From: a virus
Lineage: Duplodnaviria; Caudoviricetes
Virus record (IMG/VR): IMGVR_UViG_3300028025_003274
Location: 4,169 to 68,168 of that record
Reading direction: 5' to 3' (one strand)
DNA length: 64,000 nucleotides
A model generated the notes under the pieces. It had not been told where the DNA came from. It was given only the letters and a program-made list of their open reading frames with translations, and did no database searches. A program made the translations under genes and the position numbers. Numbering within the stretch: position 1 is the stretch's first letter; the number at the start of each line of letters is the position of its first letter. Positions 5,338 to 64,000 of this stretch are shown here, in pieces.

Positions 5338-5390
5338 TATTGATATTTATACCGTATATTTGATATTTATATACACAAATTGTATTAAAA

Positions 5391-27778: not shown

Positions 27779-28029
27779 TGGATATAGTATATTCTATAAC
27801 AGAGTTTAAATGGGTTAAGAAAGATAATACTTTCTATGCTGAGGCAGATAACCTGCACCCTGATGGAGATTATAAGTGTACTTTTCCAAACGGTAGGAAA
27901 AAGTTTTATATAAAGAACCATAGGACAAAAGGATTTAGAAGATTTATACTAAACAAAGAATATGATAACGTCTTACAATTTACAAGCGAAGACGGTATAT
28001 TATGTAAAATACAAACAAAAACAAAATGA
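27778..28029 (+). CDS. Hypothetical protein between groES and groEL
   Basis: 83 aa, overlaps both neighbours. Confidence 0.55.
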   Translation: MDIVYSITEFKWVKKDNTFYAEADNLHPDGDYKCTFPNGRKKFYIKNHRTKGFRRFILNKEYDNVLQFTSEDGILCKIQTKTK

Positions 28030-29681
28030 TAAAGACAGAATTTGGAACAGACCTCAAAAAGAAACTCCTAGAGGGGGTTAACAAGATTAATGCAAGTGTA
28101 TCCTCTACACTGGGACCTGCAGGTAGGAATGTAATCATTAGAGGTGCTGACGGTACTATTAAGATTACTAAGGATGGTGTTACAGTAGCACAATCATTTA
28201 GTAAGCTTGAAGATCCTATTGAGGATATCGGAGCTCAAATGATTAAAAGCGTATCAGTAAGATCAGCAGATAAAGCTGGAGACGGTACAACAACTTCTAC
28301 ATTACTTGCGTCCGTAATGGTGAATGAAGGTATTAAAGCTATCACACAGGGATCTAACGCAGTAGAAGTAAAGAAAGGCATAGATAAAGCTGTATCAGCA
28401 GTAGTGGCCGGTTTAAAGTCTATCTCTAAGGATATCTCCTCAGAAGATCAGATTAAACAAGTAGCAACTATTTCTGCTAACAACGATACTGAGATTGGTA
28501 CATTAATCGCAACTGCTTTGGATAAAGTGGGTACTGATGGTATAGTAGCTATTGAAGAGTCAAAGTCTGGTGAGACTTCTTTAGAAGTAGTAGAAGGTAT
28601 GATGTTTGACAGAGGTTTCAAATCTCCATACTTTGTTACAGACAACTCCACAATGCAGGCTGTATTTGATAAGCCGTTGATCTTCTTGTACGATGGCAGA
28701 CTTACTAGCACTGCACAGGTGTTGCCATTGTTGCAAGCAGCTCACGCAGAAAGCCTTCCGCTACTTATCGTTGCTGAGGACATTGAGCATGAGGCACTGG
28801 CTATCTTGGTAGTTAACAAAGCAAACGCTACAATTAAAGTATGTGCTGTAAAGGCTCCTGACTTTGGTGATCGTAGGACTGCAATCTTAGAAGACATTGC
28901 AATCCTTACTGGTGGTACTGTTGTATCTCCTACTAAAGGTAATAAGATTGAAAAGATGAAGCCTGATGAGTTCAAGCCATTGTTCGGTAAAGCTCGTATG
29001 GTAAATGTATCATCTAAAGATACCACTATCATTGATGGTAAAGGATCAGTAGAAGGAATTGAGCAGAGGTTGAATGATATTAAAAAACAAATCGAGATTG
29101 CCAAATCTAACTTTGAAATTGAAAAACTCCAAGAGAGATTGTCAAAACTTACTGGCGGTGTTGCTATTATCAATGTTGGTGGTATGAGTGAGATTGAGAT
29201 GAAGGAGAAGAAGGACCGTGTAGACGATGCACTACACGCTACTAAAGCTGCCTTAGATCAAGGTATTGTTCCTGGTGGTGGTATGGCATTAATCAACTGT
29301 ATAGACTTGCTTAAAGAGGCTGTATTGAATTGTGATAACGATGATCAAGAACTGGGTGTACGTATTGTTACTAAAGCTTTGTATGCACCATTTAAAACCA
29401 TCCTTACCAATGCTGGTATTGAGAATGCATACGAGATCCTAAGCAATGTAAAGAGCGATGCTAACGGTGAAGAAGATAGCACATGGTACGGATATAATGC
29501 CAAGACTGGAGAGATTCAAAACTTCTTCACAGCAGGTATCTTAGATCCTACTAAAGTAACAAGGACTGCTATTGAGAATGCTGCCAGTGTAGCTGGAACT
29601 ATCCTCACCACAGAATCAGCAGTATACTTTACAGGAGATGAGAAGAAAGATGATATCGATTATAGTCAATTCATGCAATAA
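28026..29681 (+). CDS. groEL: Chaperonin GroEL
   Basis: [48 protein letters not shown]. Confidence 0.96.
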
Positions 29682-42849: not shown

Positions 42850-43641
42850 GTGAGAAACTTAATTAATTTACTACTAGAAGCCCCCATGGACGATGCTACA
42901 GCACAGAAGATGCTATCTTCTGGTAAGCAAGTGTCTATATACTATCAAGGGGATAACGATTCCAAAAAAGGCTGGAGAAAGATAGAACCTGTTCGCATAG
43001 AAGGCGAAGGGGATGATAAGGCCATGGTAGCCTATGAGATAGAAGGGTTAGGTAAGAAGCCAGTCCTCAAAAAGTATGTACAGAAGAAGATTACCAACTG
43101 GAACGTACTGAGTACAACCCCTGCTACTATAGCTGCTAAGGAGAAAGAGAAAGAAAAGAAGGCACCAAAAAAGCCTGGAGCTAAGCCTCCCACCCCACAA
43201 AAAAGAAGTTTAGGTACTCAAGGAGATGACTTCTGTGATGCAATAACTAACAAAAGGATAGTTAAGATGTATTATAAAGGAGACGAAGAAGAAGCTCCTG
43301 GATGGCGTACAGATGTGCAGGCCGTGTGTTATGGATCTCGTAAAGGAGTTAAGTATGTCAGGGCTTGGGTAGGCGCAGGTAAATCAGTAAGTGCAGACAA
43401 AAGTCCAGAAAAGAAAGCATTACCAGGGTGGAGGTTTTTCCGTCAAGACAGAATACAGAAGTGGGAAGTAGATGCTACTAAAACATTTAAAGCACCTCCT
43501 AAGGCAGACTTTAATCCTAAAGGAGATAAACTTATGGATACCGTATTCTGTATATCAGACTTTGCACCAGACGCACCACCAACAGGATTGCAAGAAGCTA
43601 CTATGCTATCAGCAATAAAGGAGGCTATCAATATTTTTTAA
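42850..43641 (+). CDS. Tandem WYL-like domain protein
   Basis: Two repeats YY.GD....GWR...; second has VRAW...PGWRFFRQDRI; late box 42838. Confidence 0.7.
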   Translation: MRNLINLLLEAPMDDATAQKMLSSGKQVSIYYQGDNDSKKGWRKIEPVRIEGEGDDKAMVAYEIEGLGKKPVLKKYVQKKITNWNVLSTTPATIAAKEKEKEKKAPKKPGAKPPTPQKRSLGTQGDDFCDAITNKRIVKMYYKGDEEEAPGWRTDVQAVCYGSRKGVKYVRAWVGAGKSVSADKSPEKKALPGWRFFRQDRIQKWEVDATKTFKAPPKADFNPKGDKLMDTVFCISDFAPDAPPTGLQEATMLSAIKEAINIF

Positions 43642-44394: not shown

Positions 44395-45093
44395 ATGGAA
44401 ATCAAATCATTTAAAAAGCAGAAGTCCAACAGAGGACAAGACTTAAATATAGAAAGGCAAGCTATTGAAAGGGCCATGCGTGATACCATGTCTAATAAAG
44501 CCGCTGCTAAATCCATAGGAGTATCATTCAAGACTTACAAGAAGTATGCCCAGATGTATCGTAATGCAGAGGGTATAACCCTGTACGATCTACATAAGAA
44601 CCAAGCTGCTAAAGGTATCCCCAAGTTCGGTAAGAGAAGACATGATAAAGCTTCCATCATAGATATAATGGAGGGGAAAGTATCTAAAAGCTTCGTATCA
44701 ATTAAGATATTAAAGCATCAGATTATACAGCACGGTATATTAAAAGAAGAATGTTGTAGGTGTGGATTCAAAGAGCAGAGAGTGTTAGATTACAAAACAC
44801 CTTTGATAATGAACTTCAGAGATGGGGATAAGAAGAACTGGGCTCTAGATAACGTAGAATTCTTATGTTATAACTGTTTTTTTCTTTGTGTAGGAGAAGT
44901 ATTTACAAACAAACAACTCTCTGTAATAGAGGACTATACAGATTTAAGATCTGTCAATATAGATCTAGACCTGCCGGTAAAACATGAACAGGCTATAAAG
45001 GAATCCATTAACCTAGAAAATAAGAATATTTATAGTAGTGATGAGAGGCCGGAGGACTATGGAAGTGATTTGATATCTACATACAGGAAGTGA
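44395..45093 (+). CDS. HTH plus degenerate HNH/zinc-finger protein
   Basis: SNKAAAKSIGVSFKTYKKY (HTH); CCRCG...DGDKKN...N.EFLCYNC. Confidence 0.65.
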   Translation: MEIKSFKKQKSNRGQDLNIERQAIERAMRDTMSNKAAAKSIGVSFKTYKKYAQMYRNAEGITLYDLHKNQAAKGIPKFGKRRHDKASIIDIMEGKVSKSFVSIKILKHQIIQHGILKEECCRCGFKEQRVLDYKTPLIMNFRDGDKKNWALDNVEFLCYNCFFLCVGEVFTNKQLSVIEDYTDLRSVNIDLDLPVKHEQAIKESINLENKNIYSSDERPEDYGSDLISTYRK

Positions 45094-45786: not shown

Positions 45787-45805
45787 AAATATATATTTAT
45801 ATTTG
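45774..45805 (+). promoter_or_regulatory. Bacteroidota-type promoter for tmRNA, overlapping a late box
   Basis: TTTG (45774) - 20 nt - TATATTTG (45798); ATATTTAT at 45793. Confidence 0.65.
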
Positions 45806-45815
45806 TAAAACATAT

Positions 45816-46224
45816 GGGCCTAACCGGTATCGATTCGTAATCGGAGGGTAGTACCACACGCAGAGACACCGTACTAGTTCTCTTTAAATCTGTACGAAAC
45901 AATAAATGACGAGATGTCAACTATGACCTTCGATGACCTTATGGCCTTCGTTGGTGCCGATGAAGCAACATTTGCTTAATCCGCCGAGGTGTCTACAACC
46001 TCGCTTCAAACAAAGTGGAACACAGAGTTTCCCCGATCGACTCATTAAATAAGGACTGGGGTGGTGGTTAGCTGTCTCCGGACATCCCCTTACTGATCAG
46101 CTTGCAGATCAAAACTACGGTGCAGATGACGGGGGATCTCCCTCTTGATTGTCAGTACTAAGCGTGTGAGATGCTGGTGCTATTGTTCATTGCGAAGACG
46201 TGGGTTCGAATCCCACTAGGTCCA
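45816..46224 (+). ncRNA. ssrA: tmRNA
   Basis: Acceptor GGGCCTA/TAGGTCC-A with G3:U, T-arm GTGGG-TTCGAAT-CCCAC, internal tag ORF after ATAAAT at 45908-45979; CCA not encoded. Confidence 0.92.
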
Positions 46225-46257
46225 CTCAAAGGTTTAGGTTAGGATTATGGTTAAAAC

Positions 46258-46290
46258 GAAGGGGGGTGTCTACCCCCTTTCTCTTTTTTC
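46258..46290 (+). terminator. Rho-independent terminator after tmRNA
   Basis: GAAGGGGG / CCCCCTTT stem followed by T-rich tract. Confidence 0.75.
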
Positions 46291-46308
46291 CTATATTTAT
46301 ATAGGAAT

Positions 46309-46470
46309 ATGTGTCCTATATGTATAACAACTATGGTTCTTAATGGTCTATTCTGGTTAGCAGGATCACTAGGATTATTAAAGGCAGTTAGTTATGTAAA
46401 AAAAAGATACTATCTCTGGAGTAGTAAAAAATGCAAAAAGTGCAGAGATAGAGAATGTTCTTCTGAATAA
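46309..46470 (+). CDS. 53 aa membrane protein with CxxC at both ends (not in ORF track)
   Basis: MCPICITTMVLNGLFWLAGSLGLLKAVSYVKKRYYLWSSKKCKKCRDRECSSE; late box at 46293. Confidence 0.6.
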   Translation: MCPICITTMVLNGLFWLAGSLGLLKAVSYVKKRYYLWSSKKCKKCRDRECSSE

Positions 46471-46521: not shown

Positions 46522-46779
46522 ATGAAAAAATTTCTCTCTCAATTGTTTAATGACAAGAATACTATTAACGAAAAAAGTTTTATTGGATTTTGTGCGTTCC
46601 TAATGATGGTAGTGTTTGCTATTGCAGATATTATAACAGGGTCTTTAGGCAAAGAGCTTATTATTCAAGACTTTATATTTAATTCTTTCTTATGGATGAC
46701 TTTAGGATGTTTTGGTATAGCATCCGTAGATAAGTTTATAAATAAGAAAAACGAAACCAATAACGAAGAACAATTATAA
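46522..46779 (+). CDS. Two-TM membrane protein, holin-like
   Basis: 85 aa, two hydrophobic helices, charged C-tail. Confidence 0.6.
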   Translation: MKKFLSQLFNDKNTINEKSFIGFCAFLMMVVFAIADIITGSLGKELIIQDFIFNSFLWMTLGCFGIASVDKFINKKNETNNEEQL

Positions 46780-46790
46780 AAAACAAATAA

Positions 46791-47048
46791 ATGAAAAAAG
46801 TACCAGTAAACAAATTGATCTCCCTGATTAACGCAGTAAAAGGAAAAAAGCCAGTGGTAATCATAGCTTCTGTAGTCGCCATTGCTGCAGCTATATTTGC
46901 AATAAGTAAAGGCTATATATCAGAAGATATGTTAAATGTAGACGCTGTAGTTAGTTTTATAGAGGACGCTGTTAGTAAAGAAGCCGAAGTAAATGTTATT
47001 GATACTGTGGCTACACAAGTTGTAGTTGATAGTGTAATAACTCAATAA
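46791..47048 (+). CDS. Single-TM membrane protein
   Basis: Basic N-terminus, one hydrophobic helix, acidic C-terminus. Confidence 0.55.
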   Translation: MKKVPVNKLISLINAVKGKKPVVIIASVVAIAAAIFAISKGYISEDMLNVDAVVSFIEDAVSKEAEVNVIDTVATQVVVDSVITQ

Positions 47049-48161
47049 ATGAAGAATCTATCTAAAGAAGAACTACTTAGTAGGCTTGAAGCGATTAATC
47101 GTAGCAATGCTATCATCTATTTTGATCTAAATGGAAAAATTTTAGGCGTTAATGCTATTTTTCTACAAGCAATGGGATATGGTGTAGATGAACATGAGGA
47201 GCTTATTGGTAAGCACCATAGTATTTTTGTATGTGAAGATTATGCAAGGTCATTGGAGTATGAAAAGTTTTGGGATATATTAAGGAGTGGTAAATACTAT
47301 CAAGGAGAATTCGAAAGAAGGAAAAGAGATGGTAGTCTTATCAACTTACAAGCAACATACAATCCTATTTACGATGAGAGTGGTACTATTACTAAAGTAA
47401 TGAAAGTTGCTACTGACATTACTACGATTGTTAATAGTAAAAAACAGATAGATGCTATTAATAAGAGTACTGCAACTATTAGTTTTGATATGGATGGTTT
47501 TATTTTAGATGCCAATGCTGTGTTTTTAGAAACAATGGGTTATAAGGCTAATGAAAAAAACCAAGTAATAGGAAAGCATCATAGTATTTTTGTAACTTAT
47601 GAGTATTCAAAATCAGATGAGTATAGTAAGTTTTGGAAATCCTTAAAAAGTGGTAAGTTTTTTGATGGGATATTTGAAAGAAAAAGAGTAGATGGCTCTA
47701 CTATCTATTTACAAGCCACATATAATCCAGTCTTTGACAGCAAAGGAAACGTTACAAATGTAATTAAAATTGCTACTGACGTTACTGAAGCTGTCAATAG
47801 TAAAAACAAGATAGACACTCTCTCAAAAGATTTACAGATTGAGTTAGATAACTCCAAAAAACTTAAAGACGCAATTGAAGTAGAGAAGAACGCTGCGTTA
47901 AATGATTTGGATATAGTGATGAAGAAAAGCCAATCTGAGCTAATCAAGACGATTGTAAAAGTAGCATTAGGGGTAATTGTTGGTGTTGGATTAGTAACAA
48001 CTGTACTATATTGGATGGCAATTGTTACACAGAAGGATACCCAAATAATTGGATCAACTTGGTCAAACATGTTCAGCGTATTACTGACCAATGCATTTTC
48101 AATAGTTGGAACAATTATGGGTATAAAATATGCTACTCAAGATGATAAAAATAAAAAATAA
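47049..48161 (+). CDS. Tandem PAS-domain protein with coiled coil and two C-terminal TM helices
   Basis: Two repeats of AI..S.A.I.FD..G.IL..N..FL..MGY...IGKHHSIFV...FW..L.SG...G.FER....G..I.LQATYNP..D..G....V.K.ATD; no MCP or kinase output domain. Confidence 0.88.
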   Translation: MKNLSKEELLSRLEAINRSNAIIYFDLNGKILGVNAIFLQAMGYGVDEHEELIGKHHSIFVCEDYARSLEYEKFWDILRSGKYYQGEFERRKRDGSLINLQATYNPIYDESGTITKVMKVATDITTIVNSKKQIDAINKSTATISFDMDGFILDANAVFLETMGYKANEKNQVIGKHHSIFVTYEYSKSDEYSKFWKSLKSGKFFDGIFERKRVDGSTIYLQATYNPVFDSKGNVTNVIKIATDVTEAVNSKNKIDTLSKDLQIELDNSKKLKDAIEVEKNAALNDLDIVMKKSQSELIKTIVKVALGVIVGVGLVTTVLYWMAIVTQKDTQIIGSTWSNMFSVLLTNAFSIVGTIMGIKYATQDDKNKK

Positions 48162-53062: not shown

Positions 53063-53165
53063 AGTCAGGTGGCGGAATTGGTAGACGCATAGGTTGAAAT
53101 AGGATTTGCTTTAAAAAGCTACCTAACTCATTAAGGGTGTACAGGTTCGAGTCCTGTCCTGACTG
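53063..53165 (+). ncRNA. Class II tRNA-like RNA with 26-nt anticodon loop
   Basis: Acceptor AGTCAGG/CCTGACT-G, Leu-type D-arm GGCGGAATTGGTAGACGC, stem TAGGT/ACCTA, variable arm ACTC/GGGT, T-arm ACAGG-TTCGAGT-CCTGT. Confidence 0.8.
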
Positions 53166-59914: not shown

Positions 59915-60042
59915 GGCTTATTATACTGGGAGTAGCAATCCTAGGTAGCTTGGTATGGCTATGGGCCGGAGGTATAGATTACATGAAAGAAAACCACCCT
60001 GATTATAAAGGTGAGGATCTATTTGGGGAGGGGGACAATTAG
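59908..60042 (+). CDS. 44 aa membrane protein (not in ORF track)
   Basis: MVGLIILGVAILGSLVWLWAGGIDYMKENHPDYKGEDLFGEGDN. Confidence 0.55.
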   Translation: MVGLIILGVAILGSLVWLWAGGIDYMKENHPDYKGEDLFGEGDN

Positions 60043-60149
60043 TCCCTCTTTCTCTTTTGTACCTTTTGCCCTCAAAAGCAAAAAACCCAACTCACAAATG
60101 CAGACATATTTTTACAGGGACTTTGATTTTTTAGGAAAGACACAGGATT

Positions 60150-60539
60150 ATGAAAAGATATCAACTGGGGAATTACATTCAAGACTGGCAGAAAAAAATA
60201 GCCAAGGCAGTAGAAATAAACCAGAAAGGAATACTGGCGGAGTACTCTGATAAGCAGACGTACTTTCTTGAATGGCACGACATGAAGCCGTTAGAAATAA
60301 CTGTACAACTAATGAAGGAGATGGGATTTACTGTAGCAAGAGAAAAAGACAATCCCTACCATAAAGAGATAGGGATGTCTATATTACTCGGAGGTAAGTT
60401 CTACAACTCAAGGGGCATAATATACAACGATAGAAGTATATGGACATTCAATAGCACAACACTACTGTACATACACCAGATACAAAATATCATATCTATA
60501 ATAGATCCTACTAAAGATATGTGTGTTTCCGGGTTTTAG
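60150..60539 (+). CDS. Hypothetical protein
   Basis: QLGNYI...KPLEIT...MGF...YIHQIQN pattern. Confidence 0.6.
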   Translation: MKRYQLGNYIQDWQKKIAKAVEINQKGILAEYSDKQTYFLEWHDMKPLEITVQLMKEMGFTVAREKDNPYHKEIGMSILLGGKFYNSRGIIYNDRSIWTFNSTTLLYIHQIQNIISIIDPTKDMCVSGF

Positions 60540-61177
60540 ATGTTATGCCAATAATCTATATCAAACATATTCGAAGAGTATTCTTCAGGATCATCGTACC
60601 CTATTATTTTAAACTTATTACTAATAATAAGACCCAACCTTATCAGGAAAGGTATTACCTTACTATAATAAGGCATCTGTCCAAAGCTACCGTGGTTCTT
60701 AGATATGATCCATGGCCAGTCCTCCGTAGAATGATTACCACTTTTTATAATACTCATGCATTTCAAACAGAGTGCATCGTAATGAGAAATAGGTTTTTCT
60801 ATCATCTCTATAGGAGTAGACATAACAGATAATACTCTCACACAATACCCAAACATAAACTTGTCTGTGAACACTCCTCTAGGCACTCTCCTGCTATGAC
60901 CAAACATTTTCTTATCCAAATCAAAGAATGTGTTGTATGGCCAGGTATAGGTATACCCACTGTCTACAAGGTAGACGTGTATTTTAATAGTTGAGTCAGC
61001 TCTAAACTTCTTATCGTATATAGGTTCTATTCTATATCTACCGAAGTATCCATTGTTATCTAGAAGCTTACTTACTGACTTAACATTAGGTCTATAAGGT
61101 CTACTGAACAGTAACTCATTCAATGATACTGAAAACTTGTCACTCTTAAGTTCATCATCTATCAGTAGGTCGCTCAT
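60536..61177 (-). CDS. Hypothetical protein
   Basis: 213 aa, last gene of minus-strand block. Confidence 0.55.
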   Translation of the reverse strand: MSDLLIDDELKSDKFSVSLNELLFSRPYRPNVKSVSKLLDNNGYFGRYRIEPIYDKKFRADSTIKIHVYLVDSGYTYTWPYNTFFDLDKKMFGHSRRVPRGVFTDKFMFGYCVRVLSVMSTPIEMIEKPISHYDALCLKCMSIIKSGNHSTEDWPWIISKNHGSFGQMPYYSKVIPFLIRLGLIISNKFKIIGYDDPEEYSSNMFDIDYWHNI

Positions 61178-61179
61178 AG

Positions 61180-61506
61180 TTAGTTAAGGTTTATAGTTAT
61201 CTTATCAATGACAGAATCGTCTACTATTCTTTCGGACTCAGTCTCTAGTTCATTGACTAGTGTTACAATCTTAGCTATCTTACGATAGTCTTCTATCTCT
61301 GTGTAGTATGTGTAACACAATCTAATGTTGAAGATAGCTACATCTAAAAGATCTGGCTTGTCTTTGACATTCCTACCCAAGAAAAGGAGAGATTGAAGGG
61401 ATAGAGCCATGTACTCCTCTATAGTCTGATCAGTCTCTTCTATATTACTCTTACCTATCTCTAGAGCTGCTTCAAACTCTGATCGGTCAAATTCTAAAAT
61501 ACTCAT
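61180..61506 (-). CDS. Protein with UVR-like motif
   Basis: YYTEIEDYRKIAKIVTL. Confidence 0.55.
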   Translation of the reverse strand: MSILEFDRSEFEAALEIGKSNIEETDQTIEEYMALSLQSLLFLGRNVKDKPDLLDVAIFNIRLCYTYYTEIEDYRKIAKIVTLVNELETESERIVDDSVIDKITINLN

Positions 61507-61521
61507 ATGGTTGGTTTTTGT

Positions 61522-61899
61522 TTATGTAAAGATAATTAAAGGTTTGTTGCCATTGTCAATTATTTCCCCCACAGTCTTAAGAACCCTACTATACCAGGTA
61601 AACTTGTCTAGTTGATTCTGTGACATAATCCAATTGTTATCCACTACCTCTCTAAGAATGTCAGTTAGTTTAAATAGAAGAAAGTCCTTGAACTCCTCAA
61701 TAGACTTATCCCCCTTCAAACTATTACACTTCCTACAGGCGAAGACTTTATTGTTTACTAATGTATTGCCCTCTGATATAGGCAAGAAGTGATCCCTAGT
61801 GATGTCCTCATAAGGGAAGTCCTTCTTACAGTAGTAGCACCCTCCTCCCTGCTTCATGTACTGCTCATACAGCTGTTGACTAAATTTTCTTTGGTTCAT
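61522..61899 (-). CDS. HNH endonuclease
   Basis: CYYC...TRDHFLP..EG....N.VFACRKCNSLKG. Confidence 0.85.
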   Translation of the reverse strand: MNQRKFSQQLYEQYMKQGGGCYYCKKDFPYEDITRDHFLPISEGNTLVNNKVFACRKCNSLKGDKSIEEFKDFLLFKLTDILREVVDNNWIMSQNQLDKFTWYSRVLKTVGEIIDNGNKPLIIFT

Positions 61900-61901
61900 A
61901 A

Positions 61902-63023
61902 TTAAAACGGTAAATATAAAGAATCATCACTAACCTTCAAAGGTATATTTCTTTCAGTTATTATAACATTTAATTCTGCTAAGGCCGCAGTAACCGCAAC
62001 ACGTAGCTCATTAGATACAGAAGAGTTTCTTTTACCAAATAGTTGGTTCAACCTAAGTATGTTGTTATTTGATTTTGCATTACTTAAAATATTCAAACCT
62101 AGACTAGCTTCCTCTCCCATCCAGCTTATATGATATGCTAAAAAGTTTCCACTATCTATATAAGTCCAGTAGTTAGTATATACACAATGTTGCATAATAC
62201 TTCCTTCCATAAACACTCTCTTCTGAGTATCCAAGGGTTCAAAGAACTCCGGCACAAACTCAGCTATCTTTTTATAGTTGTTTACTTTAACCTCTTTATC
62301 CGGTATACTGTGTATCTCAGCAGCCATGATCTCTTTAGTCCAGAGGGTATGCTCTTCGTTCATCCTTTTAGGAGACCACTTAAAATCAATCTTCTTTTCT
62401 AATATCCTAGACTGAGATATCAAGTCATCTAAATGAGTATAATTTGAGGTATCCCCCAAATGAAACTCTAGGTAATGATTAACATCCTTAGCAGCATAAG
62501 CACCACGAAGTAATGAAATCTTAGTTAGTCTCATTTTTTTACACAAAGAGTACAGTAGCTTAGGTGAAGCATTTATACGAGATAGCTTAAGATATCCACT
62601 CAAGTAGTCTATAGGATTAGTTATCTTACCTGTAATAACTTTTTCAAATAGAGTCTTGGTCATGAAAGGCCAAAGCTTCTCGTCCTCATTTGTAAACCAA
62701 TCTATATTCAATGCTCTCAAAGCAGTACAGAAATGGGGATTAGATGCTACATCTGACCCGTACCACACTTTAAGTTTACCCTTCTCATCTACAGTAAACC
62801 CCTTCTTACTCTTGAGTTTTACATAATACTTCTTACCCTTCTTAACTTTATAAACACTGTAACCGTAATGTATCTTACCATCATCAGTCTTTATAAGATC
62901 AGATTCTATAAACTCCTTATTGGTAATAGTTCTGTTGTATATAATATTCTTATACACACCATCTTCCATTTCTAGGAACTCAGCTATTTCAGTAGGCTTA
63001 GTGTTTATTATTATCCTCTCCAT
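61902..63023 (-). CDS. PcfJ-like domain protein
   Basis: C-terminal EGSIMQHCV..Y...Q..G.RN. Confidence 0.65.
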   Translation of the reverse strand: MERIIINTKPTEIAEFLEMEDGVYKNIIYNRTITNKEFIESDLIKTDDGKIHYGYSVYKVKKGKKYYVKLKSKKGFTVDEKGKLKVWYGSDVASNPHFCTALRALNIDWFTNEDEKLWPFMTKTLFEKVITGKITNPIDYLSGYLKLSRINASPKLLYSLCKKMRLTKISLLRGAYAAKDVNHYLEFHLGDTSNYTHLDDLISQSRILEKKIDFKWSPKRMNEEHTLWTKEIMAAEIHSIPDKEVKVNNYKKIAEFVPEFFEPLDTQKRVFMEGSIMQHCVYTNYWTYIDSGNFLAYHISWMGEEASLGLNILSNAKSNNNILRLNQLFGKRNSSVSNELRVAVTAALAELNVIITERNIPLKVSDDSLYLPF

Positions 63024-63171
63024 TAGATTTTTCTTGATGAATGAATATTTTCATAGTCCTTCCCTCATCTTGTATTGAGATGTTTACTACGTTATCTTTA
63101 TTCCAATTAACATAAGACCTTCCGTTCTCATCTATAACTTCTACTCTTACAACACCTTCTTGATATTCCAT
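62998..63171 (-). CDS. 57 aa hypothetical protein (not in ORF track)
   Basis: VRVEVIDENGRSYVNW...SIQDEGRTMKIFI. Confidence 0.55.
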   Translation of the reverse strand: MEYQEGVVRVEVIDENGRSYVNWNKDNVVNISIQDEGRTMKIFIHQEKSNGEDNNKH

Positions 63172-63182
63172 AGTTGTTTGTT

Positions 63183-63395
63183 TTAAAGTACAATACCTTT
63201 AAAGTCTTCTGGTCTTCCATCAAGTATCTCCTCATGAGGTCCGTAGTACCACTCTTCGTTCCTATCTTTTTGAAACTTTGTTACGTGGTTACTAAACACA
63301 ACTTCCCGGAAACCCCCCTCGTATCCAGGAACAAGTACTACTAGTTCGGGATCTACTGTCTGTAGTTTTTCAATAAGATCTTTTACTGTTATCAT
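63183..63395 (-). CDS. Hypothetical phage protein
   Basis: TVKDLIEKLQ.VDP...GYEGG...WYYGPHE. Confidence 0.7.
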   Translation of the reverse strand: MITVKDLIEKLQTVDPELVVLVPGYEGGFREVVFSNHVTKFQKDRNEEWYYGPHEEILDGRPEDFKGIVL

Positions 63396-63643
63396 GTTGT
63401 TTTATTTAGTTTTTTAATTAAGTACTTCATTGCGTCTAATTGCCCCCAGGTTATAGAGAATGTCTGAGGATCGGTCTTATGTATGTCAACATCAATTCCC
63501 TCACCGTTAGCCCACTTCGTGATCTCAATGTAGTCATGTTCTTTAGAGAACAGAGGATCGAACTGATCAAGATCAGCAAATATTGCTTTCCTAGAATATA
63601 GCTCTGATACAAACATTTCTTTATCTTTTTTACTATTCTTCAT
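63392..63643 (-). CDS. Hypothetical phage protein
   Basis: DYIEITKWANGEGIDV...TWGQ; ATG at 63643 preferred over 63670. Confidence 0.65.
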   Translation of the reverse strand: MKNSKKDKEMFVSELYSRKAIFADLDQFDPLFSKEHDYIEITKWANGEGIDVDIHKTDPQTFSITWGQLDAMKYLIKKLNKTT

Positions 63644-63797
63644 GTTGTTCTTTATTATATTTTTCTTCAATAATACTAATAACTAAATTAACTAAAGTCT
63701 CTGGACCTATGAAAGTAACCCAATCACAATCTTCTGCAATCTGGTTTACCCTTCTCATGTATTCCTCATAGACTTCCTTCCTGTCTATTTGTGCCAT
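63633..63797 (-). CDS. 54 aa hypothetical protein (not in ORF track)
   Basis: MAQIDRKEVYEEYMRRVNQIAEDCDWVT... Confidence 0.5.
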   Translation of the reverse strand: MAQIDRKEVYEEYMRRVNQIAEDCDWVTFIGPETLVNLVISIIEEKYNKEQHEE

Positions 63798-63800
63798 AGT

Positions 63801-64000
63801 TTATTTGTATTTAACAATTTCAATTAACTTCTTGAGACAAGCAAGTTCTGCTTCTTCGTAGGTGCATTCTTGCAAAAAATCATCAACCCTATTGTGTGTT
63901 GTTATTTCTACCACATAATATTCTGTATCTTCTTCCCAAACTTCTTCGATAATATACATTAAATTATACTTCTCCCTAAACCATCTAAACGCTTGTTGGT
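63801..64000 (-). CDS. Partial CDS running off window edge
   Basis: QAFRWFREKY...TYEEAELACLKKLIEIVKYK-stop. Confidence 0.6.
   Translation of the reverse strand, partial: QQAFRWFREKYNLMYIIEEVWEEDTEYYVVEITTHNRVDDFLQECTYEEAELACLKKLIEIVKYK

Follow-up and report, generated by a model that had tools for sequence, protein, structure and literature searches.

The protein considered here, encoded at 47049-48161 on the plus strand of a 64-kb stretch of DNA from an uncultured aquatic phage, is best explained as the in-cis sensor version of a phage-specific modular device that carries a signal to the membrane and to lysis. The stretch, called the window below, is part of the 68-kb IMG/VR viral record IMGVR_UViG_3300028025_003274, whose completeness is estimated at 40%. 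The protein has 370 amino acids (aa) and joins two PAS domains and a long helix to a C-terminal hairpin of two transmembrane (TM) helices. For the family defined by this hairpin, strong comparative evidence points to a role in signal-dependent control of lysis, and we put at slightly better than even (about 0.55) the probability that the 370-aa protein itself is a signal-controlled holin partner, an antiholin or a gated holin that sets lysis timing. This assessment draws on the near restriction of the hairpin family to viral contigs, its association with endolysin genes, the interchange of the inputs joined to it, and the invariance of its second membrane helix.

Architecture of the PAS-PAS-helix-hairpin protein

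A preliminary description of this DNA placed three open reading frames (ORFs) in a row, at 46522-46779 (85 aa), 46791-47048 (85 aa) and 47049-48161 (370 aa plus stop). It described the third as two chemoreceptor-type PAS repeats, a coiled coil and two C-terminal TM helices, with no methyl-accepting chemotaxis protein (MCP), kinase or GGDEF output. The ORFs are present as placed, and Pfam, NCBIfam, an AlphaFold2 model and hydropathy bear out this layout down to the C-terminus, which reads ...NAFSIVGTIMGIKYATQDDKNKK. PAS domain 1 comprises residues 20-124 (47106-47420, +) and ends in ATDIT, and PAS domain 2 comprises residues 141-245 (47469-47783, +) and ends in ATDVT. Pfam detects PAS families only, namely PAS_3 (PF08447; 94.8 bits against a cut-off of 25.6, in two stretches) and further PAS_9, PAS and PAS_4, while NCBIfam detects TIGR00229 sensory_box (110 bits against a cut-off of 22.9, E 7.9e-32, also in two stretches). 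Neither collection yields an MCPsignal (PF00015), HAMP, HisKA/HATPase or GGDEF domain in the protein, nor any enzymatic or DNA-binding output domain.

The AlphaFold2 model (mean predicted local distance difference test score, pLDDT, 82.5) contains PAS folds at residues 21-123 and 142-244, with pLDDT of ~84-91 over both domains, followed by a continuous helix at 246-327, a turn, and a helix at 331-368. Residues 246-298 of the long helix (47784-47942, +) form a cytoplasmic linker that closes with the motif NDLDxxxKKSQxELI, kept across the family; the length of the helix suggests a dimeric coiled coil. TM1 follows at residues 299-327 (47943-48029, +), with the small-residue run GVIVGVG, and is joined by a short outer loop at 328-337 (48030-48059, +; ...KDTQIIGST, with the model turn at 328-330) to TM2 at 338-362 (48060-48134, +), WSNMFSVLLTNAFSIVGTIMGIKYA, which is the most conserved element of both the protein and the family. 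Hydropathy places the two TM segments at 302-320 and 341-359. The protein ends in the charged tail TQDDKNKK, residues 363-370 (48135-48158, +).

The PAS domains are ordinary ones. They are 55% identical to each other, which points to an origin by tandem duplication. The label "chemoreceptor-type" is apt insofar as the longer cellular homologues closest to this protein, with 36-48% identity confined to the PAS part, are multi-PAS MCPs and GGDEF/EAL proteins; one source even names homologues "methyl-accepting chemotaxis protein", a name that the domain content of the 370-aa protein does not share. Among solved structures, the best sequence matches are MmoS (3ewk, E 1.4e-9), NifL (2gj3) and Aer (8dik), and the top Foldseek matches are MmoS, DosP, NifL, LOV-HK and FixL, with E down to 6e-17. 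This similarity to flavin and heme sensors is generic. PAS domain 2 reaches a best identity of 46% with the PAS domains of histidine kinases from sister phages (see below), and since identity to the phage kinases (45-46%) is about the same as that to bacterial MCPs, the origin of the pair is not decided by these values.

The tail family and its distribution

A search with the tail of the protein (residues 255-370) against 1.84 billion representative proteins returned 102 matches, 70 of them at E 1e-10 or better. Most matches are 130-230 aa long and differ in their N-termini, and intact family members span ~185-390 aa. In the commonest form, a small conserved N-domain (LEGNILKLI...RRKRLEITKQ) is followed by a helix of variable length and the common hairpin (alignment A1); AlphaFold2 models this form, at a pLDDT of 90, as an N-domain of ~37 residues, a helix at 38-158 and another at 163-199. 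Other inputs joined to the tail are a single PAS domain (P0133, P0122), a GAF domain (P0132) and a zinc-finger-like start (P0123). Neither the tail nor the N-domain matches any Pfam, PHROG or NCBIfam model, and the top score of the tail in the ESM Atlas, 0.78, is uninformative.

The family is abundant in environmental viruses. The PAS-PAS form is encoded in 163 IMG/VR stretches and the N-domain form in at least 596 of the 599 stretches matched with it, while a relative is encoded in 253 of 258 stretches matched with the GAF protein P0132 and in 348 of 358 matched with the single-PAS protein P0133. More than 120 metagenome clusters are 82-95% identical to the 370-aa protein. Deposited phage genomes present a different picture: the tail has a match in none of 50,697 records, blastn of the region against these records gives no match, and tblastn of the 370-aa protein gives matches to the PAS part only, in 3 records. 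We regard this as a real, abundant phage protein family that is undescribed and unannotated.

The preliminary description had named a common occurrence of the same architecture in bacterial chromosomes as evidence that would count against its lysis proposal. No such occurrence was found, because the tail family is not a bacterial chromosomal one: a scan of 185,579 species genomes with tail alignment A3 identified 6 loci, the scan having used two conserved peptide patterns that distant cellular relatives could escape. All 6 loci are on contigs of 3-36 kb from metagenome-assembled genomes (MAGs) of unrelated phyla, have phage-like neighbours, and are read as mis-binned viral contigs. The tail family is essentially viral and nearly restricted to viral contigs.

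Short tail matches (42-140 aa) were also considered as stand-alone genes and rejected, since most of them begin partway through the protein, or else reach TM2 from an unrelated N-terminus or across an internal deletion; they are treated as fragments, chimeras or deletion variants. The preliminary description had suggested a search for stand-alone tail homologues beside endolysins, and no clear one was found among these matches, which look cut or chimeric. In P0166, P0195 and P0200, the start of a PAS or N-domain protein is joined straight to TM2, and these three may be either natural internal-deletion variants or assembly chimeras.

Conservation of the second membrane helix

Invariance was counted over 59 unique PAS-PAS proteins. 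TM2 is invariant at 25 of its 25 sites, compared with 7 of 10 in the outer loop, 14 of 29 in TM1, 17 of 53 in the linker helix, 51 of 105 in PAS domain 1, 35 of 105 in PAS domain 2 and 1 of 8 in the charged C-terminal tail. Codon choice varies at 22 of these 25 TM2 positions, and the constraint is therefore on the amino acid sequence rather than on the nucleotides. In the wider family, too, conservation is highest within TM2 (F-S-I-x-G-T-I-x-G). TM2 is probably the functional core of the protein, as a simple anchor would not be expected to be so conserved. Polar and small residues recur in it at helical spacing, and TM1 contains GxxxGxG; such features would be typical of helices that pack tightly or line a pore.

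The linker offers a further hint, and a hint only, of a register-sensitive coiled coil. In the N-domain form, dividing the linker length by 7 leaves a remainder of 2 or 3 for 15 of the 22 distinct lengths and for 78 of 87 sequences; these classes were picked post hoc, and the sequences are related to one another.

Association with lysis genes

ORFs were called and neighbouring genes clustered in 161 loci, 81 of which, including the window's own, belong to the PAS-PAS lineage and contain an intact ORF of 360-389 aa without exception. An endolysin gene is located within 1.5 kb of the hairpin gene in 70 of these 81 loci, downstream in 54 and upstream in 16. The enzymes are of GH19 (35 loci), Phage_lysozyme or GH24 (14), PG_binding_1 (13) and Peptidase_M15_3 type (8). 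Over all 161 loci, the neighbours comprise five unrelated endolysin types, namely Glyco_hydro_19 (phrog_181, E 3e-61), Phage_lysozyme (E 3.6e-43), Peptidase_M15_3 (E 6e-21), PG_binding_1 with Amidase_2, and PG_binding_1 with phrog_3000.

The hairpin gene has a second conserved companion in A85, the 85-aa protein encoded at 46522-46779 in the window. In 57 of the 81 PAS-PAS loci, the hairpin gene has an A85 homologue at a distance of 600 bp or less, and in relatives this companion is usually situated directly upstream of the endolysin; of 59 homologues detected with a hidden Markov model (HMM), 58 are on the strand of the hairpin gene. The cassettes also share a holin-like protein that matches TIGR01593 (E 3.4e-8, below the model cut-off), NF035928 and, weakly, Phage_holin_4_1, and that is a credible holin. 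By a crude hydropathy test, 14 of the 81 loci have no further small TM ORF in the vicinity of the hairpin and endolysin genes.

The order of these genes varies widely, for example "A85-hairpin-GH19-holin", "hairpin-A85-GH24", "GH19-A85-x-hairpin" and "M15-hairpin", and the window's other neighbours are rarely kept in the 80 related loci (phosphoesterase in 9, orf80 in 6, orf96 in 1, RNA ligase in 0). The linkage to lysis genes has therefore outlived both reshuffling and replacement of the enzyme. In a complete relative of 123,450 bp with terminal repeats, the sole Phage_lysozyme and Peptidase_M15_3 matches are found ~0.3-1.1 kb downstream of the hairpin gene, just after it and A85, and this genome has no GH19 or PG_binding_1 match. 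In the closest relatives of the window (L002-L007), GH19 is directly upstream of A85, and the region is mosaic between close relatives.

A separate observation concerns L123:8376-9488 and 33 other loci of the short hairpin family, in which a conserved protein of 370 aa combines TM helices at its N-terminus with a long coiled coil. Its gene directly follows the short hairpin gene or a holin-like gene. This protein has no family match and could be another lysis or envelope component.

Interchangeable inputs

The inputs joined to the hairpin were surveyed in 318 loci, counted as unique hairpin proteins. Among 134 proteins of the N-domain form, 128 have a receiver gene within 1.5 kb, 124 a kinase gene within 2.5 kb, and 35 an endolysin gene within 1.5 kb. 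At the same distances, the 59 proteins with two PAS domains have no receiver and no kinase and an endolysin in 50 cases; all 6 proteins with one PAS domain have an endolysin and none has a receiver or kinase; and the 3 GAF proteins again lack both and have an endolysin in 2 cases. Of the 68 sensor-fused proteins together, 58 are encoded no more than 1.5 kb from an endolysin gene, and not one has a receiver or kinase gene nearby.

Immediately before the hairpin gene, the N-domain phages carry a gene for a single-domain receiver (Response_reg, 35.4 bits; cut-off 30.2), which is itself preceded by a gene for a histidine kinase of ~415 aa with two TM helices, PAS_3 and HATPase_c (49.9 bits against 26.4), and some kinases are ~300 aa long and carry no PAS domain (e.g., in L153 and L132). 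Across 79 kinases, the H-box RHDMHSGINTY is conserved along with the N, G1 and G2 motifs (DNGRG, GLGL), and 118 receivers likewise keep their acidic pocket, Asp, Ser and Lys (DDE, VFVDLN, GIISSS, K). By domains and motifs, then, the pair in these sister phages is a two-component system; the window encodes no such pair. Examples beside the short hairpin are L083:4308-5558 and L093:5564-6001, with ~200 further loci among L082-L318, and the kinase-receiver-hairpin triad recurs on a high-GC MAG contig. When deposited phage records were searched with the phage kinase by tblastn, weak generic kinase or PAS matches were all that appeared. Full-text literature searches turned up, in the portions of text they covered, no account of such a system or of a kinase, receiver or PAS protein that is encoded by a phage and acts in the control of lysis.

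This either/or pattern works as a "Rosetta stone": it implies that the hairpin is a common output, fed either by a sensor fused to it or through a kinase and a receiver. Because the endolysin of the N-domain form is often distant, the triad can evidently sit apart from the lysis enzymes.

The gene cluster upstream

The gene of the 370-aa protein belongs to a cluster of membrane-protein genes in the window. Directly upstream of this cluster is a transfer-messenger RNA (tmRNA) gene at 45816-46227 (+), identified by Rfam (RF00023, 67.4 bits against a cut-off of 47) and by ARAGORN; the tag peptide that ARAGORN predicts ends in ATFA, which is unusual. Close relatives have pieces of this tmRNA gene ~5 kb away, on the opposite side of the PAS gene. 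After the tmRNA gene, a G+C-rich stem of 10 pairs, 6 of them G-C, at 46258-46281 (+) is followed by the T-run TCTTTTTTCC, and this element looks like an intrinsic terminator separating the tmRNA gene from the membrane-gene cluster.

The preliminary description had reported a late box ahead of the cluster. The motif, ATATTTATATA, is significant, as the exact 11-mer occurs five times in the window, always on the plus strand, against 0.41 copies expected, and five copies were reached by 0 of 100 shuffles. The copy in question is located at 46293-46303 (+), 5 nucleotides (nt) before the ATG at 46309, and hence before a 53-aa ORF that heads the cluster, not immediately before 46522. The other copies, at 5363, 7254, 8303 and 17570, each precede an ORF; three copies precede ORFs of the tail and baseplate module, the ORF after 7254 encoding the baseplate hub (phrog_150), and a near-copy is found at 45793 before the tmRNA gene. 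The motif is a candidate late-type promoter element and, judged from its placement, may act as a late promoter.

The 53-aa ORF (46309-46470, +) has a hydrophobic centre, CxxC at both ends and a strongly basic C-terminus. It matches a holin family weakly (phrog_28727, E 0.0057) and is not conserved, with a tblastn match in 0 of 80 related loci. The two ORFs that come next are, as originally described, a two-TM protein and a single-TM protein. A85 (46522-46779, +) has two TM segments by hydropathy and a charged C-terminus, and it may be a holin or the partner of one. No family in Pfam, PHROG or NCBIfam matches it, and a comparison of 24 members with the PHROGs gave one insignificant match, from one member. 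In the ESM Atlas, A85 falls among viral hypothetical clusters only, with a weak lead to DUF2644 (0.91, in 38% of members). A relation between A85 and the tail as diverged homologues was rejected (hhalign probability 0.2%), and a complex prediction for the two scored 0.00, a value that is not evidence either way. The second protein, B85 (46791-47048, +), combines one N-terminal TM helix with an acidic C-terminal half. Its stop codon abuts the ATG of the 370-aa ORF, and it is confined to the closest relatives, with a tblastn match in 5 of 80 loci.

The virus and its probable host

Gene products of the window include a tail sheath, tail tube, baseplate hub, ribonucleotide reductase, family A DNA polymerase, GroEL, thymidylate synthase and RNA ligase, and the window also carries tRNA genes beside the tmRNA gene. 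The nearest cultured relative by DNA polymerase is Flavobacterium phage vB_FspM_immuto (54% identity over the full length), and by tail sheath it is Microcystis phage Mel-JY01 (38% identity). A Shine-Dalgarno (SD)-like 4-mer precedes just 2 of 54 window genes, compared with 16% at random positions, and the regions upstream of genes are 50% A. Hosts of the Bacteroidota type are not known to use SD sequences. An aquatic member of the Bacteroidota is thus the probable host, given the scarcity of SD-like 4-mers, the A-rich upstream regions and the relation of the polymerase to its counterpart in a Flavobacterium phage.

Several other features of the window were recorded. The GroEL-type chaperonin is encoded at 28026-29681 (+; phrog_5725, E 1.7e-147). 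Upstream of the tmRNA gene are a 263-aa ORF at 42850-43641 (+), which has a WYL-domain match (E 7e-7) and two halves that appear similar by eye, and an HNH endonuclease-like ORF at 44395-45093 (+; phrog_14736). A tRNA-like gene of 103 nt at 53063-53165 (+) scores 42.9 bits in Rfam and is missed by ARAGORN; its anticodon-loop region holds ~25 nt against 6 in the model and its variable arm is long, so that a tRNA that is interrupted, or atypical in some other way, seems possible. At ~60000-64000, the GC skew changes sign and long ORFs move to the minus strand (60536-61177 and 61902-63023), marking a module boundary.

Proposed mechanism and alternatives

From these observations we infer a membrane topology, a dimeric state, a path of signal flow and a possible binding partner for the 370-aa protein, and with them a function in lysis. 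Its two cytoplasmic PAS domains would perceive a cytoplasmic or membrane-proximal cue, and the resulting change would travel along the dimeric linker helix into the C-terminal two-helix hairpin, both ends of which would be on the inner side of the membrane (N-in/C-in). The near-invariant TM2 would then associate with holin-type proteins, either A85 or, where present, the TIGR01593-like holin; alternatively, the hairpin itself might assemble in the membrane. In either case, the sensed state would govern when the membrane is permeabilised and the endolysin released. In sister phages, the N-domain of the hairpin protein would instead be fed by the phage PAS histidine kinase and the single-domain receiver. 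We slightly favour a regulator, that is, an antiholin or holin partner, over a self-sufficient gated holin, because holin-like genes co-occur with the hairpin gene, the protein is large, and the N-domain triad can sit apart from the endolysin.

The preliminary description had proposed a sensor-controlled holin or antiholin that ties lysis timing to the energy state of the host, and the lysis part of this idea receives partial support. In favour of a lysis role are the endolysin and A85 neighbourhoods (70 and 57 of 81 loci), the swappable inputs, the non-chromosomal distribution of the family, the late-type motif ahead of the cluster, and a pair of TM helices with a charged C-terminal tail of the kind that holins have. 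The complete relative, too, has endolysin genes next to its hairpin gene. The conserved adjacency of A85 is only suggestive for a role as antiholin or holin regulator.

A number of observations weigh against this reading. Neither the tail nor A85 matches a holin or antiholin family in Pfam, PHROGs or NCBIfam, and a protein of 370 aa with ~300 cytoplasmic residues is unlike a textbook holin, which has 60-150 aa. The window contains no endolysin of the five neighbour types in its 64 kb and no TIGR01593-like holin, and the 68-kb record contains no GH19. No endolysin is found within 4 kb in 11 of the 81 PAS-lineage loci; 3 of these 11 loci end within 531 bases after the gene, and in L016 the endolysin is ~9 kb off. 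In the N-domain form, proximity to an endolysin is modest, rising from 35 of 134 proteins at 1.5 kb to 78 of 134 at 4 kb. The neighbourhood counts are not independent events, because the loci are related to each other, and gene neighbourhood is not function.

Much of this evidence also bears on the best-surviving alternative, which we consider unlikely: a membrane-tethered sensor acting late in infection on a non-lysis target such as a host membrane protein, a transporter or a respiratory component, with the link to lysis genes reflecting merely a shared neighbourhood of late membrane genes in a hypervariable region. The window copy without a nearby endolysin would fit such a sensor, as would the N-domain triad, which is more than 1.5 kb from an endolysin in 99 of 134 unique proteins, and the several other unannotated membrane ORFs in these regions; an invariant TM2 could equally bind a conserved host membrane protein. 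A merely shared neighbourhood is harder to reconcile with an endolysin adjacency that outlasts rearrangements and four endolysin replacements, with the tightest embedding being found in precisely the sensor-fused forms (58 of 68), and with a complete genome whose sole endolysin matches, for the four families searched, are neighbours of the hairpin gene.

A PAS-switched membrane protein of superinfection exclusion or immunity, or a sensor in defence or counter-defence, is in our view a good deal less probable again. Small membrane proteins in variable phage regions often serve exclusion or immunity, for example Imm and Sp of T4, and both the mosaic character of the region and the modular inputs, which resemble those of many defence sensors, would suit this role. 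Yet incoming virions or DNA would find little surface on an outer loop of ~10 residues, the cluster lies behind a late-type motif, and the hairpin gene is consistently linked to genes of endolysins and holins, not to early ones.

The decoy or mimic of host PAS chemoreceptors that the preliminary description had offered as its second option is very improbable, even with PAS domains related to those of bacterial multi-PAS MCPs and homologues named after them, as the protein has no MCP signalling domain or HAMP and so cannot join a receptor array, TM2 and not the PAS pair is most constrained, the same tail is paired elsewhere with GAF or with the kinase-receiver pair, and the host is probably one of the Bacteroidota, many of which are not known to have flagellar chemotaxis.

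Signal-controlled lysis timing is consequently the reading that we carry forward for the 370-aa protein. A broader proposal is more tentative, and we would not give it even odds: that many uncultured aquatic phages possess their own signalling pathway, through a cis sensor or through a kinase and CheY-like receiver, which ends in a lysis-cassette hairpin that gates holin triggering.

Relation to known systems

Lysis timing sets burst size and phage fitness. To our knowledge, it is controlled by the intrinsic "clock" of the holin or, in T4, by a superinfection signal. If the broader proposal above is correct, a virus would time lysis by the redox, energy or ligand state of its host and not only by a clock-like holin, and environmental phages would condition lysis on the sensed state of host or environment. 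The protein would represent a new class of "sensor holin/antiholin", and the two-component system of the sister phages would be the first in a phage to have a membrane protein as its direct effector. With family members in hundreds of IMG/VR stretches, an effect on virus-driven mortality in lakes and seas is possible. Synthetic biology would also gain a compact switch from sensor to membrane whose inputs can be exchanged, and the passage of a signal from a coiled coil into a two-helix membrane effector could be studied on a concrete example.

On the sensory side, the PAS type of the 370-aa protein and the D(I/V)T-then-helix ends of its domains are those of Aer and multi-PAS MCPs, GGDEF-EAL proteins, MmoS, NifL, DosP and FixL. 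Unlike these sensors, it has no HAMP, MCP, kinase or cyclase output, and its output is the C-terminal membrane hairpin. A two-component system coupled to holin-like membrane proteins is described for Firmicutes, where LytSR controls CidAB/LrgAB; this system is cellular and transcriptional and works through a DNA-binding regulator (PMC3507848, PMC6997555). In contrast to LytSR as described there, the kinase and the receiver-only protein of the sister phages are phage-encoded and adjoin the membrane protein, which suggests direct control at the protein level.

A phage-encoded PAS receptor that ties a lysis decision to a sensed signal also has a counterpart. The VqmA-type receptor of vibriophage VP882 is a soluble transcription factor acting on the lysis-lysogeny switch, whereas the 370-aa protein lacks any domain for binding DNA and carries at its C-terminus a membrane hairpin that belongs, in its relatives, inside the lysis cassette.

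On the membrane side, class II two-TM holins and pinholins, with antiholins of the S107/S105 type (lambda S, S21 of phage 21), are proteins of 60-150 aa. The tail resembles them in its two-TM hairpin, its probable N-in/C-in topology and its charged C-terminus, in helices rich in small and polar residues (GVIVGVG in TM1; G, T and S throughout TM2), and in the position of many relatives directly upstream of an endolysin. It differs in the length of the protein, the lack of a match to holin models, and the ~300 residues of cytoplasmic sensor and linker that precede the hairpin. In concept, the protein resembles an S107-type antiholin or a regulated holin-antiholin system of the T4 type. A precedent for sensor control of a holin is found in T4, where the holin T and the antiholins RI and RIII achieve post-translational control of lysis timing (lysis inhibition), with a periplasmic sensing domain that reports superinfection. 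Both systems consist of membrane proteins with a sizeable sensing or regulatory domain, located with lysis genes. No relation in sequence or fold to the T4 proteins was found, and the device described here would work with cytoplasmic PAS or GAF domains, or a kinase-receiver relay, through a long helix and a two-helix hairpin. Signal-dependent lysis of this sort would thus be regulated lysis timing, known in kind, and built here from an unannotated membrane module.

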